Shown here: positions 11,254 to 52,517 of the stretch, piece by piece
Layout of the letters: every line of letters begins with the position of its first letter
Position numbering within the stretch: position 1 is the stretch's first letter
Source: Leucoraja ocellata
Lineage: Eukaryota
Assembly (NCBI GenBank): GCA_036785375.1
Contig: JAWMAR010000748.1
Location: 62,001 to 126,000 of the forward strand
Reading direction: 5' to 3'
Length of the DNA: 64,000 nucleotides
Notes under the pieces: generated by a model
Seen by the model: only the letters and a program-made list of their open reading frames with translations
The model's database searches: none
Told to the model about the DNA's origin: nothing
Position numbers and translations under genes: made by a program

Positions 11254-12251
11254 CTGATGAATACAATTGAACACAAAACCAATTAGGAAACTGAAAGGCG
11301 TATCCAAATTAATAGACAAATCTCTTTCTATGGAGGAAAGACAAAAAGATAATGAAGTGAACCATTTAATAATAGTGTTGTTTTCAAATGACTTTAGTTT
11401 TGTTTAGAGAAACATCACAGAAAAAGGCCCTTCAACCCATCAAATCTGCAACGACCAGCGATCCCTGTACATCACCTCTACCCAACACACACTTGGATCA
11501 ATTTTTACATTGTAAAAATATTCATACCAAGGCAATTAACCTACAAACTTGTACGTCTTTGAGGTGTGGGAGGAAACTGAAGATCTTGGAATAAAACCCA
11601 CGCAGGTTACAGGGTGAACGTACAAACTCTGTACAGACAGCACCCGTGGTCAGGATCGAACCCGGTCTCTGGCGCTGTGAGGTAGTAGCTCTAACACCAC
11701 CATAATGTTGTTTAGAATGGGATCAGTGGTTGCTGACACTGCTAACAAGGCACACTATTCATGGTGATTCCAAATGGCATTTCCCACACAGCTTCATTTA
11801 CTCCAGTTCCCCTTAGAAACATAGAAACATACAAAAATAGGTGCAGGAATAGGCCATTCGGCCCTTCGAGCCTGCACTGCCATTCAATATGATCATGGCT
11901 GATCACCCAACTCAGTATCCTGTACCTGCCTTCTCTCCATACCTCCTGCTCCCTTTAGCCACAAGGGCCACATCTAACTCCCTCTTAAATATAGCCAATG
12001 AACTGGCCTCAACTACATTCTGTGGCAGAGAATAGTAAGATTAAACGAGAACTTACCAGTTTGAAGTTTGATCTGTATTTTATGAGGAGGAACGTTGAGG
12101 GAATACGTGAAGAAGCCCGCTTACGGCGCATGCGTGTCATCCTTCAAAGCAGCGGTGTGAGGTCACAGATACACTATAATGACCTAAAATAGCAAGATTA
12201 TTAAAGAGATACCAGTTTAAGATATGACCATATGAGGGTGGGAGCGGAGGG

Positions 12252-12364
12252 CACGTATTCCCTCAACGTTCCTCCTCATAAAATACAGATCAAACTTCAA
12301 ACTGGTAAGTTCTCGTTTAATCTTACTATTTTACTTCGGAGTCACGTGAGTGACTACGTGAAGA
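12252..12364. repeat. DIRS internal complementary region (ICR)
   Basis: 12252-12327 is the reverse complement of 12034-12109; ATT at 12328-12330; 12331-12364 is the reverse complement of 17121-17154. Together these reproduce the circular junction exactly. Confidence 0.93.
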
Positions 12365-12544
12365 TTTCAAAGCTCTGTGACCTCACGCCGTGGAACGAGT
12401 CCATGCTTCACAACTGCCTTGGTAGTTTGGGAGAAATTGTTAATGATATTCAACAAAAAAAACATTGATACCAATTATTTAACGTAACAATAAATAATAT
12501 TTATTAATTCAAATCATAAACCCTTGTTCTTCAGGGATAAATTA

Positions 12545-13492
12545 TCATACAGAACTTAAAAGTTTCCCCGAAAACGTTGCTATACTGCTAACTGGTTTAT
12601 TATAAAATTTTTGAAACGTCTTCTCCGACGACCATCCTGCAATCCTGAGGATTTGGTCCATGGATACATCAAGGCGTTTTGCTGCGGATGTAGCTGCCGC
12701 CCTGGTGGAGTGAGATTTAAATATATTAGTGTCCACTCCCGCCTTTGTTAACCCATATTTCAGCCACCGTGAAATGGTCTGAGTAGACACCCTATGGTAT
12801 GGTTTCTTATAGCTGATTAACAGCCCCATTTCCTTGCCTCTGATAGCCTTTGTCCGTTCAATATATAACAAAATGTGTTTCACTATACAGAGGCGTTCGT
12901 CCTCCGGGTAGGCCAGAAATTCTATGACCTGCCCCGCTGATCCTGGTCTATTTTGTTTAATAAGGTCCTGGATCACAAAAACCAAACGTCCTGCCGCCAT
13001 AGTCAAGCCATCCAGTCTTAATTTTTGCAATGACTGGACCCTTTGTGCTGTGACCAGTGCCATCAGCATGACCATTTTTCTAGTTAAAGTGTCCAGAGTT
13101 AATGCTGTAGCCGGCGACCAATTCCTTAGCATGTTGAGGACCACACTTACATCCCAGATCTGGTTATATCTTGGTTTGGGTGGCCTGGTGTTAAAAATGC
13201 CTCTTAAAAGTTTAACTACCAGCGGATGTGATCCCACTGATTGACTTTCTGTTCCTTGCCACAAAAAGGTTGATAATGCACTTCTGGCACTATTCACAGT
13301 GCTGTAACTAAGTCATTCATAGTGCAGACTGGTGAGAAACTCTAGCACTGCCGGAACATTCTTATTTCTGTGGTCCAGATGATTATTATGGCAGTAATTA
13401 ATCCATTTCCTAATATGACTTAAATATTGCTTTTGTGTTGAGCTTCTTTGTGCTGCTGTGATCATGTCCACAGTTCATTTTGATAGCCCCAT
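12545..13492 (-). pseudogene. DIRS tyrosine recombinase ORF (316 codons) with two premature TGA stops
   Basis: ATG 13492; in-frame TGA at 13477-13475 and 13315-13313. The catalytic signature remains: TAQR, HSTR, AGW, FQKFY. Confidence 0.88.
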
Positions 13493-13509
13493 GTCCCGTA
13501 GTGGTTCTT

Positions 13510-15570
13510 TCAGAGTCTACAAGCCAATAAATCAATATTTTTATGACATGGATGGCTATCCTGAGTTACCGGATGCACCAGCAACTTAGGACTATGTTTT
13601 AAATTCATACATGGTTCTAACACCATATTCTGTATCACCAAGAACCATGGTTGTGTAGGCCAATCAGGTACTATGAGAATCCCAGATGCCGAATCCTGTT
13701 GAATTTTCCTTAGTACCCGATTGATGAGGCAGAAAGGAGGAAATGCATATATGAACCATTTCCCCCAGTGCAGTGAAAATGCATCTGTAGCTTCTGCCCC
13801 AGGATCTGGTTCCCATGATACATACCTTGGTAACTGGTGATTTAACCTGGATGCAAAAAGATCAATATCCGGCATTCCATACTTTACTGTGATTTCAGCA
13901 AAGACCGTTCTATCCAACATCCATTCTGTATTTTCATTAAATTTTCGTGACCTGGCGTCTGCCACTGAATTTAGTATCCCTGGTAGATACGTAGCCGATA
14001 ACCAAATATTCCTTTGGATACACCATTGCCAAATTGAGTTTGCCAATTTATCACAAGATGTTGATATATTTCCACCCATATGATTTATATATGCCACCAC
14101 CGTGGTATTATCTATCTGCAATCTAACATGCTGCTGTTTCATTCCTGAGCAATAAGACTTTAGCCCATAAAACGCACTTAACATTTCTAAGTAATTTATA
14201 CCCTTAGTATTCAGTAGGTTAGCTTCTTGAATATTCCATCTCCCTCCACAGCTCGAGATGGTATCCGTTGCACCCCAACCAATTGCACTGGCATCTGTTT
14301 GTAATACCACAGACGGGTTGTCAATAACTATTGGGTTGGAGCCATACTTAACATTGTGTTCCCAGCATTGTAATTCTTTTATAGCTTCAATTGTTAGCTC
14401 CATTGGCCTATCAAAATGGCCTCTATTAATTTTGAGTGCTCTTATTTTCTCTCTCTGTAAATTTTGGTAGTGTAATGGCCCAAATTGTATGGCAGGAAAT
14501 GTGGCCACAATTTTGCCAATCATCCTGGCTACCCGTCTAATGGATGGTTTAAAGGTATTAATAAGCTCTGTGCAATCCTTTTGTAATTCTGTGGCTTTCC
14601 CTATTGGTAAAGTCACTAACATATCAATTGAGTTAATGGTGAACCCCAAGTAATCAATATTAGTTGATGGTGTTAATTTAGACTTAATTGGATGGATAAT
14701 GAATCCCAGCTGTTCAAACAATTGCTTTGTGGCAACCACTGCCTGACATGCCAATTCATAAGTTTTTCCCACTATAAGTATATCATCCAAATATGCCATT
14801 ACTCTATGTTTTTGTTGTCGCAGCAACGCCAAAGCTGGTTTAAGAATTTTTGTAAATAACCTGGGCGCTGACGTTAGCCCATTTGGCAAAGCCTTGTACT
14901 GCCAAAGCTGTCCCATCCAGTTAAATTTCAAAAACCGTCTATGTCTATCTCTGATGGGTATTGTATAGTAAGCATCTTTAAGATCAATACTTGCCATAAA
15001 ATAGCCTGCTGAAACTAACTCTTTAGCAGTGCTAAACGTATCCATTTTAAAATGAACATATTGCACAAATTTGTTAAGCGTTGATAAATCAATAATAATA
15101 CGGCAACCCCCATCTTTCTTATTTCTAATAAATATGTTTGAGACAAACTCGTGTTGTTCAGGTTTGGTTTGTTCAATTACCCCTTTAATGAATAATCTTT
15201 GTAGTTCTATGTGAGCTTTAGCTTGTTCCAATTTAGTAAGCATGTATATTCTGTCCGGTGTATGTTGTACTGGAGGGTTTTGTTTGTGTAGAAACGCTAT
15301 CAGATATCTCTTAATACTGCTAAGGATATATCTGTCCATAGTTATATTGCACCATGCTTCCAAATGAAGTTGCAATGTCCCTCCAACTTCCGTGCTCCCT
15401 ATAAATTCTGGAGCCCCAGATTCACCTACCTCCATGGTTATCGGTGGTAATTGAGTTATTTCCTCATTTTTATTCGTGGTTGTGGAGGGCCTTGAGGTTG
15501 AGGTTGGGATAGCTGCTGAAGTACAGGCTTCCGCATCTTCCACAGTGGTCGTCCCGGGCCAAACCCCTAA
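13510..15570 (-). CDS. DIRS pol ORF: reverse transcriptase, RNase H and Dam-like methyltransferase domain
   Basis: RT motifs IDLKDAY, LPNGLTSAPRLF, YLDD. RNase H motifs TDAS, INYLE, IDN, NSVADARSR. DIRS MT-like domain DLFASRLN...YAFPPF...PDWPTQPW. Uninterrupted to TGA 13510. Confidence 0.9.
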   Translation of the reverse strand, partial: LGVWPGTTTVEDAEACTSAAIPTSTSRPSTTTNKNEEITQLPPITMEVGESGAPEFIGSTEVGGTLQLHLEAWCNITMDRYILSSIKRYLIAFLHKQNPPVQHTPDRIYMLTKLEQAKAHIELQRLFIKGVIEQTKPEQHEFVSNIFIRNKKDGGCRIIIDLSTLNKFVQYVHFKMDTFSTAKELVSAGYFMASIDLKDAYYTIPIRDRHRRFLKFNWMGQLWQYKALPNGLTSAPRLFTKILKPALALLRQQKHRVMAYLDDILIVGKTYELACQAVVATKQLFEQLGFIIHPIKSKLTPSTNIDYLGFTINSIDMLVTLPIGKATELQKDCTELINTFKPSIRRVARMIGKIVATFPAIQFGPLHYQNLQREKIRALKINRGHFDRPMELTIEAIKELQCWEHNVKYGSNPIVIDNPSVVLQTDASAIGWGATDTISSCGGRWNIQEANLLNTKGINYLEMLSAFYGLKSYCSGMKQQHVRLQIDNTTVVAYINHMGGNISTSCDKLANSIWQWCIQRNIWLSATYLPGILNSVADARSRKFNENTEWMLDRTVFAEITVKYGMPDIDLFASRLNHQLPRYVSWEPDPGAEATDAFSLHWGKWFIYAFPPFCLINRVLRKIQQDSASGILIVPDWPTQPWFLVIQNMVLEPCMNLKHSPKLLVHPVTQDSHPCHKNIDLLACRL

Positions 15571-16976
15571 AAAAGGACGCTGCTGCTGCTGGGGACCTCT
15601 GGCCTCTCTCCAATTCTTTGTGCTATTATAGAAACTACCCTTCTTAGGAAGCTCATAAGGTTGATATCTCTTCCCTAGATATCCTTTGGCTGCCCTAATC
15701 AGCCCCAAAGTCTTGGCCTCCTCATCCAAATCTTTAACCTGTTTGGACAGGTCTCCCCCAAATAACAGGGTTTGGGGTTTTATAGCCCTTTGCTTACATA
15801 ATATGGCAAACTTAGGGTCTAGAGCTGGCTGAATAGCCCCCTTTCTTATATTATTTAATTCAAATTGCACATTGCAAAATAGTGCTAAGGCATCCTTATG
15901 ATCACTTGTCATGTCCACCTTCTCTAACGTGCGGGCCAAAGCTGTTATGCCCGCCGTGAGACCTTTCAGGGCATTTTGGACTTTAAGATCCTGACTCCTA
16001 ATGCCCGCCCCAACATGTTTCCAAATGCACCGGTTTACACTGGCTACATTCAGCGCAGCACAATTTCCCGGTGGTAAGTGCCTTGCCAACACTTCAGCAA
16101 ACGTATTAGCTTGCAGCTGGTGGGTGGACATGTACTCTATACTTGCAGCCATCCTGTCCTCGAGATTCTTCCCGGTTTGTTCCTGCTGGAAGTACTGTCC
16201 CACCATGTCCAGCAGGTTGTTTTTCTTCCCTTCAATGGGAGAAGATGGCTCCACCTCTTGCTCAGACTCTGAGCTAGTCAGACCTTCCATATCCTCCTCA
16301 GAGGAGTCTGATATATCCTGCAGCCCTTTATGGGAAACTGCTGTGGGACTTATATTATGCCCACTGTGGCTATCCTCCCTATCACGGAGCCTGCCACTCT
16401 GGATAATTTCATCCAGCAGCCGCTCCAGCCGACTTCCGTGCTCTCGGGCACTAGTCGATCGCGGGTGCTTAACTCTATCGGACCGCTCCTGCTGACCTTG
16501 GTGCTCTCGGGCACTAGTCGCTCGCGGTTCCCACAGCCGGTCCCCATGCCTCCCTGCACTGGTCGCTCCCGGCCGCCCGATATTCTCCTGCCGCCCCTCA
16601 CGGCCCCGGTACTCACGGGCACCTGTCGCCGGCGGCTGAATATCCTCCAGCCATTCGTAGCGGCTTTCCAGCTCCGTAAAGCTGGCGCTCCTGGCTGCTC
16701 CATCTCCCGCAGCTGCTCGTCGGTTCTCCGGTACTGGTAAGTACTATCTCGCTGCTGCTCCGTGACCATATCAGTTTGAAGGTGATGCGACTTTTGCTTT
16801 ACCTTCCCGCCCGGCCGAGCAGTAGATTTTGCCGGCGCGGGGTTCAAGTCGGGCACAGCTGGTTCCTCCATAGGTAACTCCTGTGGCGTCGGCTGCTGCT
16901 GCTGCAGGTCCCCGGCTCCTTCCCGACTTACGTGCTGCACCTTCCTCACCGACTTTCTGCGAGTTGCTCTGTCCAT
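15460..16976 (-). pseudogene. DIRS gag-like ORF1 with two apparent 1-nt indels
   Basis: Starts MDRATRRKSV at 16976. An apparent missing T near 16679 switches it to the frame that stays open to 13510 (FTELESRYEW...HLPPGNCAALNVASVNRCIW). A likely natural C-terminus FGPGRPLWK...RIKMRK* lies in the +1 frame after 15564. Confidence 0.7.
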
Positions 16977-17157
16977 TTCCTACAACAAAGTTAGAAATGC
17001 AGAGTCACTTACCTGCCGTTCGTCGGCTTTTTGTGTTCTCCCATTCAAGGGGACGTCCTCCCCAGGTGTGACTCGTCCATGCGTGTATGCGATATGACAC
17101 GCATGCGCCGTAAGCGGGCTTCTTCACGTAGTCACTCACGTGACTCCGAAGTAAAAT

Positions 17158-18680
17158 TTCACAGATTAACCACTCTCTGTGTGAAAAAATGTTTTCCTCA
17201 TCTCGGTCCTAACAGATTTCCCCCTTATCCTTAAACTGTGACCCCTTGTCCTGGACTTCCCTAACATCGGGAACAATTTTCCTGCATCTAGCCTGTCCAA
17301 CCCCTTAAGAATTTTGTAAGTTTCAATCTTCTAAATTCTAGCGAGTACAAGCCGAGTCTATCCAGTCTTTCGTCATATGAAAGTCCTGACATCCCAGGAA
17401 TCAGTCTGGTGAACCTTCTCTGTACTCCCTTCTATGGCAAGAATGTATTTCCTCAGATTAGGAGACCAAAACTGTACGCAATACTCCAGGTGTGGTCTCA
17501 CCAAGACCCTGTACAACTGCAGTAGAACCTCCCTGCTCCTATACTCAAATCCTTTTGCTATGAATGCTAACATACCATTCGCTTTCTTCACTGCCTGCTG
17601 CACCTGCATGCCTACTTTCAATGACTGGTGTACCATGACACCCAGGTCTCGTTGCATCTCCTCCTTTTCTAGTCGGCCACCATTCAGATAATAGTCGACT
17701 TTCCTGTTTTTGCCACCAAAGTGGGTAACCTCACATTTATCCACATTATACTGCATCTGCCATGCATTTGCCCACTCACCCAGCCTATCCAAGTCACCTT
17801 GCAGCCTCCTAGCATCCTCCTCACAGCTAACACTGCCCCCCAGCTTCGTGTCATCCGCAAACTTGGAGATGTTGCATTCAATTCCCTCGTCCAAATCATT
17901 AATATATATTGTAAATAGCTGGGGTCTCAGCGCTGAGCCTTGCGGTACCCCACTAGTCACTGCCCGTCATTGTGAAAAGGAGTCGTTTACTCCTACTCTT
18001 TGCTTCCTGTCTGCCAGCCAGTTCTCTATCCACATCAATACTGAACCCCCAATACCGTGTGCTTTAAGTTTGTATACTAATCTCTTATGTGGGACCTTGT
18101 CGAAAGCCTTCTGAAAGTCCAGATATAACACATCCACTGGTTCTCCCTTATCCACTCTACTAGTTACATCCTCGAAAAATTCTATAAGATTCGTCAGACA
18201 TGGTTTACCTTTCATAAATCCATGCTGACTTTGTCCAATGATTTCACCACTTTCCAAATGTGCTGCTATCCAATCTTTAATAACTGATTCTAGCAGTTTC
18301 CCCACCACCGACGTTAGACTAACTGGTCTGTAATTCCCCGTTTTCTCTCTCCCTCCCATTTTAAAAAGTGGGGTTACATTAGCTACCCTCCAATCCTCAG
18401 GAACTACTCCAGAATCTAAAGAGTTTTGAAAAATTATCACTAATGCATCCACTATTTCTGGGGCTACTTCCTTAAGTACTCTGGGATGCAGCCTATCTGG
18501 CCCTGGGGATTTATCGGCCTTTAATCCATTCAATTTACCGAACACCACTTCCTGGCTAACCTGGATTTCACTCAGTTCCTCCATCTCATTTGACCCCCGG
18601 TCCCCTGCTATTTCCGGCAGATTATTTATGTCTTCCTTAGTGAAGACAGAACCAAAGTAATTATTCAATTGGTCTGCCTT
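17158..18680 (-). mobile_element. CR1-clade LINE ORF2 fragment (continues at 11815-12030 past the DIRS insertion)
   Basis: KSPGPD, NYRPVSLTS, QHGF, YLDFQKAFDKV, GVPQGS, FADDTK motifs; stops and frameshifts; 3' tail at 11815. Confidence 0.92.
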
Positions 18681-51990: not shown

Positions 51991-52036
51991 AGGTGTCTAC
52001 CTTCGATTTTTCAGCATCTGCAGTTCCTTCTTAAAT

Positions 52037-52236
52037 AACCTGTTGCAGTAGATGGGGTTGGATGAGGTGCAAGTGAACCTGGTGCAGTAGATGGGGTTGG
52101 ATGAGGTGCAAGTGAACCTGGTGCAGTAGATGGGGTTGGATGAGGTGCAAGTGAACCTGGTGCAGTAGATGGGGTTGGATGAGGTGCAAGTGAACCTGGT
52201 GCAGTAGATGGGGTTGGATGAAGTGCAAGTGAACCT
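52037..52236. repeat. 39-bp minisatellite, 5 copies, derived from Penelope endonuclease coding sequence
   Basis: Unit AACCTGGTGCAGTAGATGGGGTTGGATGAGGTGCAAGTG; the minus strand encodes RFTCTSSNPIYCT repeatedly. Confidence 0.9.
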
Positions 52237-52259
52237 CAGCCACACCTGTTGCTGTCCTT

Positions 52260-52517
52260 GGCTAGAACGCGACCAGACCATTGGTGGGCACGGTCCCTTT
52301 TATGCTAATATATCTCAAAGGGGCGGGCTGATCAATGCGATTGGTTGTCTGAGGCAGACGTCGCCCGCGGTGTTAAAGCGCTGCGCTGGCGGAGGGCGGC
52401 GCTGTGGAGTGGAGGCAGGAAGCCGGAGACAAGCACAGTCCTGTCCCGTCTGCTCCAGGTGGCCGGTTCGATCCCCGCATTTCCTTCCCGTCCGCCCGCG
52501 GAACTCGCCCCTTTGCC
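52260..52517 (+). promoter_or_regulatory. CpG-island promoter/5'UTR of the GNS-like gene
   Basis: CpG-rich; reverse CCAAT boxes (ATTGG at 52280 and 52340) and a GC box GGGCGGG near 52321; directly upstream of the ATG. Confidence 0.65.

Follow-up and report, generated by a model that had tools for sequence, protein, structure and literature searches.

How are the second and third genes of DIRS1-like retrotransposons translated? The question is raised by a 5.1-kb element on the minus strand of a 64,000-nucleotide (nt) stretch of Leucoraja ocellata DNA (contig JAWMAR010000748.1, positions 62,001 to 126,000; hereafter the window), in which a slippery heptamer lies at the gag/pol junction. DIRS elements are abundant in animal genomes (with Ngaro, 2.1% of the zebrafish genome; PMC9341512), yet the sections of the literature examined here do not state how these genes are translated. 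DIRS1-like elements are described as having open reading frames (ORFs) for gag, reverse transcriptase/RNase H/methyltransferase (RT/RH/MT; here pol) and a tyrosine recombinase (YR), as well as inverted terminal repeats (ITRs), two internal complementary regions (ICRs) with a 3-nt junction, and ATT ends; they measure about 5.1 kb and come in long and short ORF-overlap types (PMC3266345, PMC9210276). The same sections describe the overlaps, not how pol or YR is translated, and 'splic', 'intron', 'translat' and 'slippery' each have 0 occurrences in PMC3266345. The window element shares with this group the ORF set (its methyltransferase match being weak), ITRs, ICR junction, ATT ends, size and overlap types, and its gag, pol and YR ORFs, ITRs and two ICRs with a 3-nt circle junction make it DIRS1-like. 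Comparison with its relatives indicates that its family quite likely makes Gag–Pol by −1 frameshifting at U UUU UUA, together with a predicted Gag–recombinase made through the same slip after splicing of pol.

Reading frames and G run at the gag/pol junction

The heptamer stands in the gag phase (TTTTTTA at 15574-15568, minus strand) and is followed in the window copy by GGGG (15567-15564). As an earlier note on this DNA had described, gag and pol are here fused in frame over 926 amino acids (aa), counted from an ATG at 16290 inside a 1,077-aa stop-to-stop ORF (16743-13510). That note also predicted the arrangement with one G fewer, and copies with GGG bear out most of it: gag ends with the predicted peptide, at a stop 39 codons past the heptamer, and pol lies in the −1 frame. 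This frame opens 16 codons ahead of the heptamer, whereas the note had placed its start at the heptamer itself. The window family thus has a −1 frameshift heptamer in the gag phase and pol in the matching frame. By comparison, T TTT TTA in this phase occurs 0 times in 9,410 gag-body codons of related elements.

Counting the G run across the family, a check set beforehand, gave GGG as the family state. Exact pattern matching returned 257 GGG and 1 GGGG genome-wide, with 0 matches for reversed controls; among the 30 best loci, 28 had GGG, 1 had GGGG (the window copy) and 1 was unparsed. Regarding the earlier proposal that a 1-nt insertion hard-wires the fusion, the extra G is indeed private to the window copy, but the resulting in-frame fusion is without consequence because this copy also carries a gag deletion and two YR stops. 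We attribute the extra G to ordinary decay or to an assembly error; among 44 one-base indels in 19 family copies, 26 lie within runs of at least three. Seven T residues replace the six of the heptamer in 2 of 20 copies (L047:2314 and L045:2323). Like the extra G of the window copy, the T7 of L047 puts gag and pol into one frame.

Conservation of the likely slip site and candidate routes to pol

Divergence in the gag alignment was too great for it to seed a search for loci, and a pol alignment was used in its place. It kept the best 80 of 497 relatives, equal to 69 loci, plus 1 locus from a viral collection. The 40 proteins of alignment A1 were selected by hand as full-length. Eighteen of these 70 outside loci were dropped (pol start, anchor or gag missing) and the other 52 collapsed to 35 distinct elements, 30 of which have pol in the −1 frame. 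The pol proteins of the compared elements have a median identity of 49.5% (range 33–75%); the elements are related, and their counts are not independent draws. Other families of the same genome also retain T TTT TTA in the gag phase.

The heptamer falls within codons for Phe-Leu (F-L), which is present in the C-terminal tail of 110 of the 119 Gag homologues with a long enough tail (152 examined, taken from clusters at 50% identity), mostly as P-F-L-G in an otherwise variable tail. Such a peptide motif could have a role in the protein, and we therefore compared its DNA coding. All 24 F-L motifs among the 30 outside −1 elements are coded NNT TTT TTR (21 TTA, 3 TTG), against a background of 2.3% for NNT TTT TTA. 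The heptamer, whose conservation was another check set beforehand, is thus kept in the gag phase as T TTT TTA in 21 and as T TTT TTG in 3 of the 30. The 6 elements lacking F-L all have another in-phase X XXY YYZ heptamer within the overlap: A AAA AAC in four, G GGT TTT in one, and T TTA AAA together with G GGA AAC in one. The background is 26 in-phase heptamers in 9,410 codons, by our own arithmetic about 11% per overlap. Altogether 27 of the 30 elements carry a strict X XXY YYZ heptamer in the zero-frame phase, and T TTT TTG is found in the 3 others. Because the search for heptamers was restricted to the open pol frame, openness of the −1 frame is partly built into these counts; this does not apply to the F-L codon test. 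On the pol tree (five short rows removed), A AAA AAC requires three changes, forced by the starred branches. Because F-L is always coded NNT TTT TTR and elements without it carry other in-phase heptamers, the conserved trait, judged from the coding, is slipperiness and phase rather than the peptide.

In two distant relatives, P0237 and P0270, gag-like and pol regions lie in one called ORF, which may be a natural fusion or an accident of the copy. The viral-collection record (L200, viral_contigs) holds a DIRS-like element with the longest branch of the tree and two candidate heptamers.

The proposal that the family makes a Gag–Pol fusion by −1 frameshifting thus receives comparative support, from the family G run (257 to 1) and from an in-phase heptamer conserved at a median pol identity of 49.5%. 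We consider −1 ribosomal frameshifting at the heptamer quite likely as the route to pol.

Several observations nevertheless speak against this route. The −1 relation is lacking in 5 of the 35 distinct outside elements, which look broken and were set aside, and the T TTT TTG of three others is non-canonical. A Met lies in the linker between heptamer and RT core in 11 of 27 relatives. Structure tests consisted of pseudoknot-free folding against shuffles; in the window family, the RNA 3′ of the heptamer (a check set beforehand) folded no better than shuffles (z −0.26 to −1.48), and across 38 elements the excess was weak (mean z −0.5 to −0.85; z < −2 in 6–8), with neat hairpins in some. No Rfam match above threshold was obtained for the downstream region. 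A 3′ stem-loop or pseudoknot 5–9 nt downstream is usual, not universal, in programmed −1 frameshifting. This usual stimulator was not found here, and the slip probably proceeds without a strong conserved one.

The Met residues bear on a different reading, whereby pol (and YR) would each begin at an ATG of their own, through termination-reinitiation or leaky scanning, with P-F-L-G kept for protein reasons. In the window family, a pol ATG in strong context lies 20 nt past the gag stop and a YR ATG lies 17 nt past the pol stop, 8 codons into YR; many families of the same genome retain a Met just before the donor described below, and an early Met is present in YR in 10 of 17 relatives. These findings also count against our proposal. 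Set against this alternative, the stretch between heptamer and RT core is free of Met in 16 of 27 outside elements, and protein constraint leaves unexplained both the NNT TTT TTR coding in 24 of 24 cases and the replacement by other slippery heptamers. We regard initiation at own ATGs as unlikely in general; in the window family, reinitiation could operate alongside frameshifting.

A second alternative takes the T run and the following AG as a 3′ splice acceptor, paired with a donor in the 5′ untranslated region (UTR) to give a gag-less pol mRNA. The heptamer site is acceptor-like in 18 of 30 elements, and a GTAAGT-type 5′ UTR donor is kept in both families examined in the genome. The AG is missing, however, in the other 12 (3 TTA-T, 3 TTG, 6 with other heptamers), a strong 5′ UTR donor occurs in 1 of 20 outside elements, an acceptor would need no gag codon phase, and 16 of 27 elements offer no start codon afterwards. 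This reading is very unlikely. At 16980-17012 (minus strand) of the window, a donor-like GTAAGT and an acceptor-like site lie 33 nt apart, just before the gag ATG. As an intron, this stretch was judged too short for a vertebrate.

Transcriptional slippage on the T run, adding one base and fusing the frames in RNA, would agree with the one-base T- and G-run gains among genomic copies (T7 in 2 of 20, G4 in the window copy), by which the run is slip-prone for some polymerase or assembly. The codon phase, however, is constant (24 of 24), and replacement heptamers such as G GGT TTT contain runs of just four, which fits tRNA re-pairing and not polymerase slippage; we hold this explanation to be highly improbable.

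Ribosomal frameshifting at the DIRS heptamer has close counterparts. HIV-1 gag-pol (U_UUU_UUA; PMC5009743, in the part consulted) has the same heptamer, a gag/pol overlap and pol in −1, and a Gag–Pol fusion is likewise predicted for DIRS. Unlike HIV-1, DIRS has no conserved 3′ stem-loop that we could find, its site is predicted to serve two downstream enzymes, and it is described as lacking a protease and a DDE integrase (PMC3783388, in part). Among animal long terminal repeat (LTR) retrotransposons, pol was in −1 in 28 of 51 in a 2003 survey, as summarised in PMC5009743; these share classical tandem shift heptamers at gag/pol overlaps and belong to a different order of element. The scheme likely works in DIRS as in HIV-1 gag-pol and these −1 LTR retrotransposons.

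For Ngaro, a programmed frameshift resembling our proposal was suggested for a YR-retrotransposon ORF overlap by Poulter and Butler (2015), as quoted in PMC13003380; the quoted passage covers the RT/YR overlap and names no site, and a generic earlier suggestion is possible. Our literature search encountered no slip site or pol splice assigned to DIRS in the sections covered of PMC3266345, PMC6681497, PMC5009743, PMC13003380, PMC7192593, PMC3783388, PMC9210276, PMC5911963 and PMC9341512; the Goodwin/Poulter papers, Gao 2003, Repbase notes and supplements lay outside this search and may mention such.

A predicted intron over pol and the route to the recombinase

Just past the gag stop lies a splice-donor motif that the earlier note left unremarked. 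In most elements E/Q/K-V closes the −1-frame linker, in DNA that reads as a splice-donor consensus. Within 63 nt of the gag stop, 26 of 30 elements have a donor that agrees with the consensus at 5 of 6 positions, and in 25 this donor is in phase 0 of pol; for comparison, such a site turns up in 5 of 703 control windows and in 0 of 30 cases immediately upstream. Across elements the donor sits 2–44 nt past the gag stop (at 15429 in the window copy).

Candidate acceptors occur at two positions. In 22 of 37 distinct elements an AG directly follows the pol FPPF codons, in an AGY serine codon preceded by a pyrimidine tract, and in 21 of the 22 the YR frame runs open from this AG. Among the other 15, that stretch contains stops in 13, and a YAG at the terminal pol C-R codons, as in the window family (13517), is present in 9; 6 of these 9 were scored and 3 were called by eye where the pattern ended one Cys early. 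Considering the 20 elements with a pol end, 17 have an acceptor, and YR is open for at least 250 aa in 13 of these 17; three of the other 4 are cut by contig ends. In the window family, pol and the YR frame share just about 7 nt, the latter opening at the TAG that belongs to the acceptor, and in five intact copies donor and acceptor are frame-compatible, enclosing a 1,913-nt intron followed by 320–324 open YR codons. A consensus donor and acceptor in compatible phase for a GT-AG intron over pol are therefore present. A RefSeq sea-urchin model (XP_071502116.1) passes from gag through an FFR linker directly to YR, with YR similarity beginning in the predicted register.

Given the phase-0 donor after the gag stop and the acceptors at the opening of the YR frame, pol is predicted to be an optional intron whose removal gives a Gag–recombinase, a reading that we find rather probable. 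The long and short pol/YR overlap types of the group correspond to the two acceptor positions, which would account for both.

Some findings pull the other way. Neither acceptor is present in 6 of the 37 elements. The sea-urchin model is a gene prediction, and it changes frame by an intron rather than by a slip. A genome search confined to the exact spliced junction of a single family gave 0 matches, and the linker was found at the N terminus of 0 of 120 YR homologues.

Frameshifting might instead supply Gag–Pol only, with YR reached by a second −1 slip in the pol/YR overlap, by its own ATG or from the 5′ UTR donor. In nearly all intact elements, YR lies in the −1 frame relative to pol, Poulter and Butler (2015, as quoted in PMC13003380) suggested a frameshift at the RT/YR overlap of Ngaro, and no junction was seen in the genome. 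These routes leave the phase-0 donor of 25 of 30 elements unexplained, however, and the YR frame of the window family overlaps pol by only the few nucleotides noted above, opening at the TAG of the acceptor. We regard another YR route as possible but doubtful.

RNA reads were inspected in eight runs labelled as one species, about 5–25% of each raw run being covered; four were compared with the window copy and four with a second-family copy (one of them contigs guessed to be RNA). Reads were mostly less than 95% alike, came from both strands and reached a depth of <1 to about 20 per strand near donor and acceptor. No joint matching the predicted intron appeared in these runs, which at such low depth of diverged reads is uninformative rather than negative. 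RNA depth at the ICR and right end was at least 10 times that of the coding region (L098:5545-5700 and window 12040-12385), and a few reads in L098 join 5679 back to 833-835; both are possibly due to short non-autonomous derivatives.

Under the proposed mechanism, translation would begin at a single start codon and most ribosomes would end Gag 39 codons past the heptamer. On unspliced RNA, a minority would slip back one base at the heptamer and translate a linker of 46–50 codons, then RT. On spliced RNA, the donor past the gag stop would be joined to the acceptor at the start of the YR frame, and the same linker would lead into YR. One start and one slip site would thus yield Gag, Gag–Pol and Gag–YR. 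Retroviruses package their enzymes by tethering them to Gag, and both DIRS enzymes may be tethered likewise for packaging. In animal LTR retrotransposons the integrase is part of pol and needs no splice. For animal DIRS1 elements at large, we favour, with somewhat less assurance than for the intron itself, a single −1 frameshift placed before an optional pol intron, giving Gag, Gag–Pol (unspliced) and Gag–YR (spliced), with two alternative acceptors explaining the long and short overlaps.

The signals found define a precise scheme for DIRS, in which a known slip mechanism would stand ahead of an optional intron. If true, a single recoding site would control how much of two enzymes is made, the pol/recombinase overlaps would be explained, and Gag-fused YR and RT would be predicted in particles. 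Annotation would be corrected, as pol and YR often lack a start codon of their own, and DIRS would provide many natural U UUU UUA sites that lack a conserved stimulator.

The element and its copy in the window

The element (17157-12031) has ATT ends, ITRs identified from self-matches and two ICRs that overlap at AAT (Table 1). Pfam matches above cutoff were RT (RVT_1, PF00078, E 5e-20) and tyrosine recombinase (Phage_integrase, PF00589, E 1.6e-6); a Dam-like methyltransferase match in pol is weak (E 0.002, below the Pfam cutoff), and PF05869 is present in several homologues. The nearest named proteins are skate RefSeq models. All three ORFs are full in 4 of 20 fetched family copies, which are 98–99% identical to the window copy. 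In the window copy itself, gag has lost 1 nt near 16686, a deletion private to this copy, and YR is interrupted by two in-frame stops (13477-13475 and 13315-13313). It is a dead member of a young family of DIRS1-type retrotransposons.

Table 1 Positions of element features in the window
Feature	Position	Strand	Remarks
DIRS1-type tyrosine-recombinase retrotransposon copy	12031..17157	-	ATT ends; 98-99% identity to four open-ORF copies
Left ITR, paired with about 12077-12140	17094..17157	-	Self-matches
5′ UTR splice-donor-like site, GT at 17012	17007..17014	-	Retained in both families of the genome examined; comparable site in 1/20 outside elements
gag, ATG 16976, family stop TAA 15458-15456	15456..16976	-	Private 1-nt deletion near 16686 in window copy
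Slippery heptamer T TTT TTA, gag phase, codons of conserved P-F-L-G motif	15568..15574	-	
G run, 4 G in window copy, 3 G in 257 other genomic matches	15564..15567	-	
-1-frame linker from heptamer to donor, 48 codons from heptamer, stop-free in family copies	15430..15567	-	
In-frame pol ATG, strong context, 20 nt past gag stop (rival start)	15433..15435	-	
Predicted 5′ splice site, GT at 15429, phase 0 in pol frame	15424..15432	-	
pol: RT, RNase H region (assigned by position), weak Dam-like match	13510..15567	-	
Predicted optional intron, 1913 nt, inside pol	13517-15429	-	
Predicted 3′ splice site, AG at 13518-13517; the YR frame opens past its TAG stop	13517..13535	-	
Tyrosine recombinase ORF, two in-frame stops in window copy	12545..13516	-	PF00589 E 1.6e-6
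ICRs overlapping at AAT circle junction 12330-12328	12252..12364	-	

A long interspersed nuclear element (LINE), presumably CR1-like, flanks the element on both sides (12001-12030 and 17158-17330), that is, the element is inserted in the LINE. RNA reads of other LINE copies pass from 17155 into sequence resembling the far side, and mark the empty site. Two separate copies, L039 and L041, have a common in-frame internal deletion of about 380 nt in pol with gag still open, which suggests a small non-autonomous subfamily. Elsewhere in the window, 39-nt units form a tandem array of near-identical copies (51998-52275).

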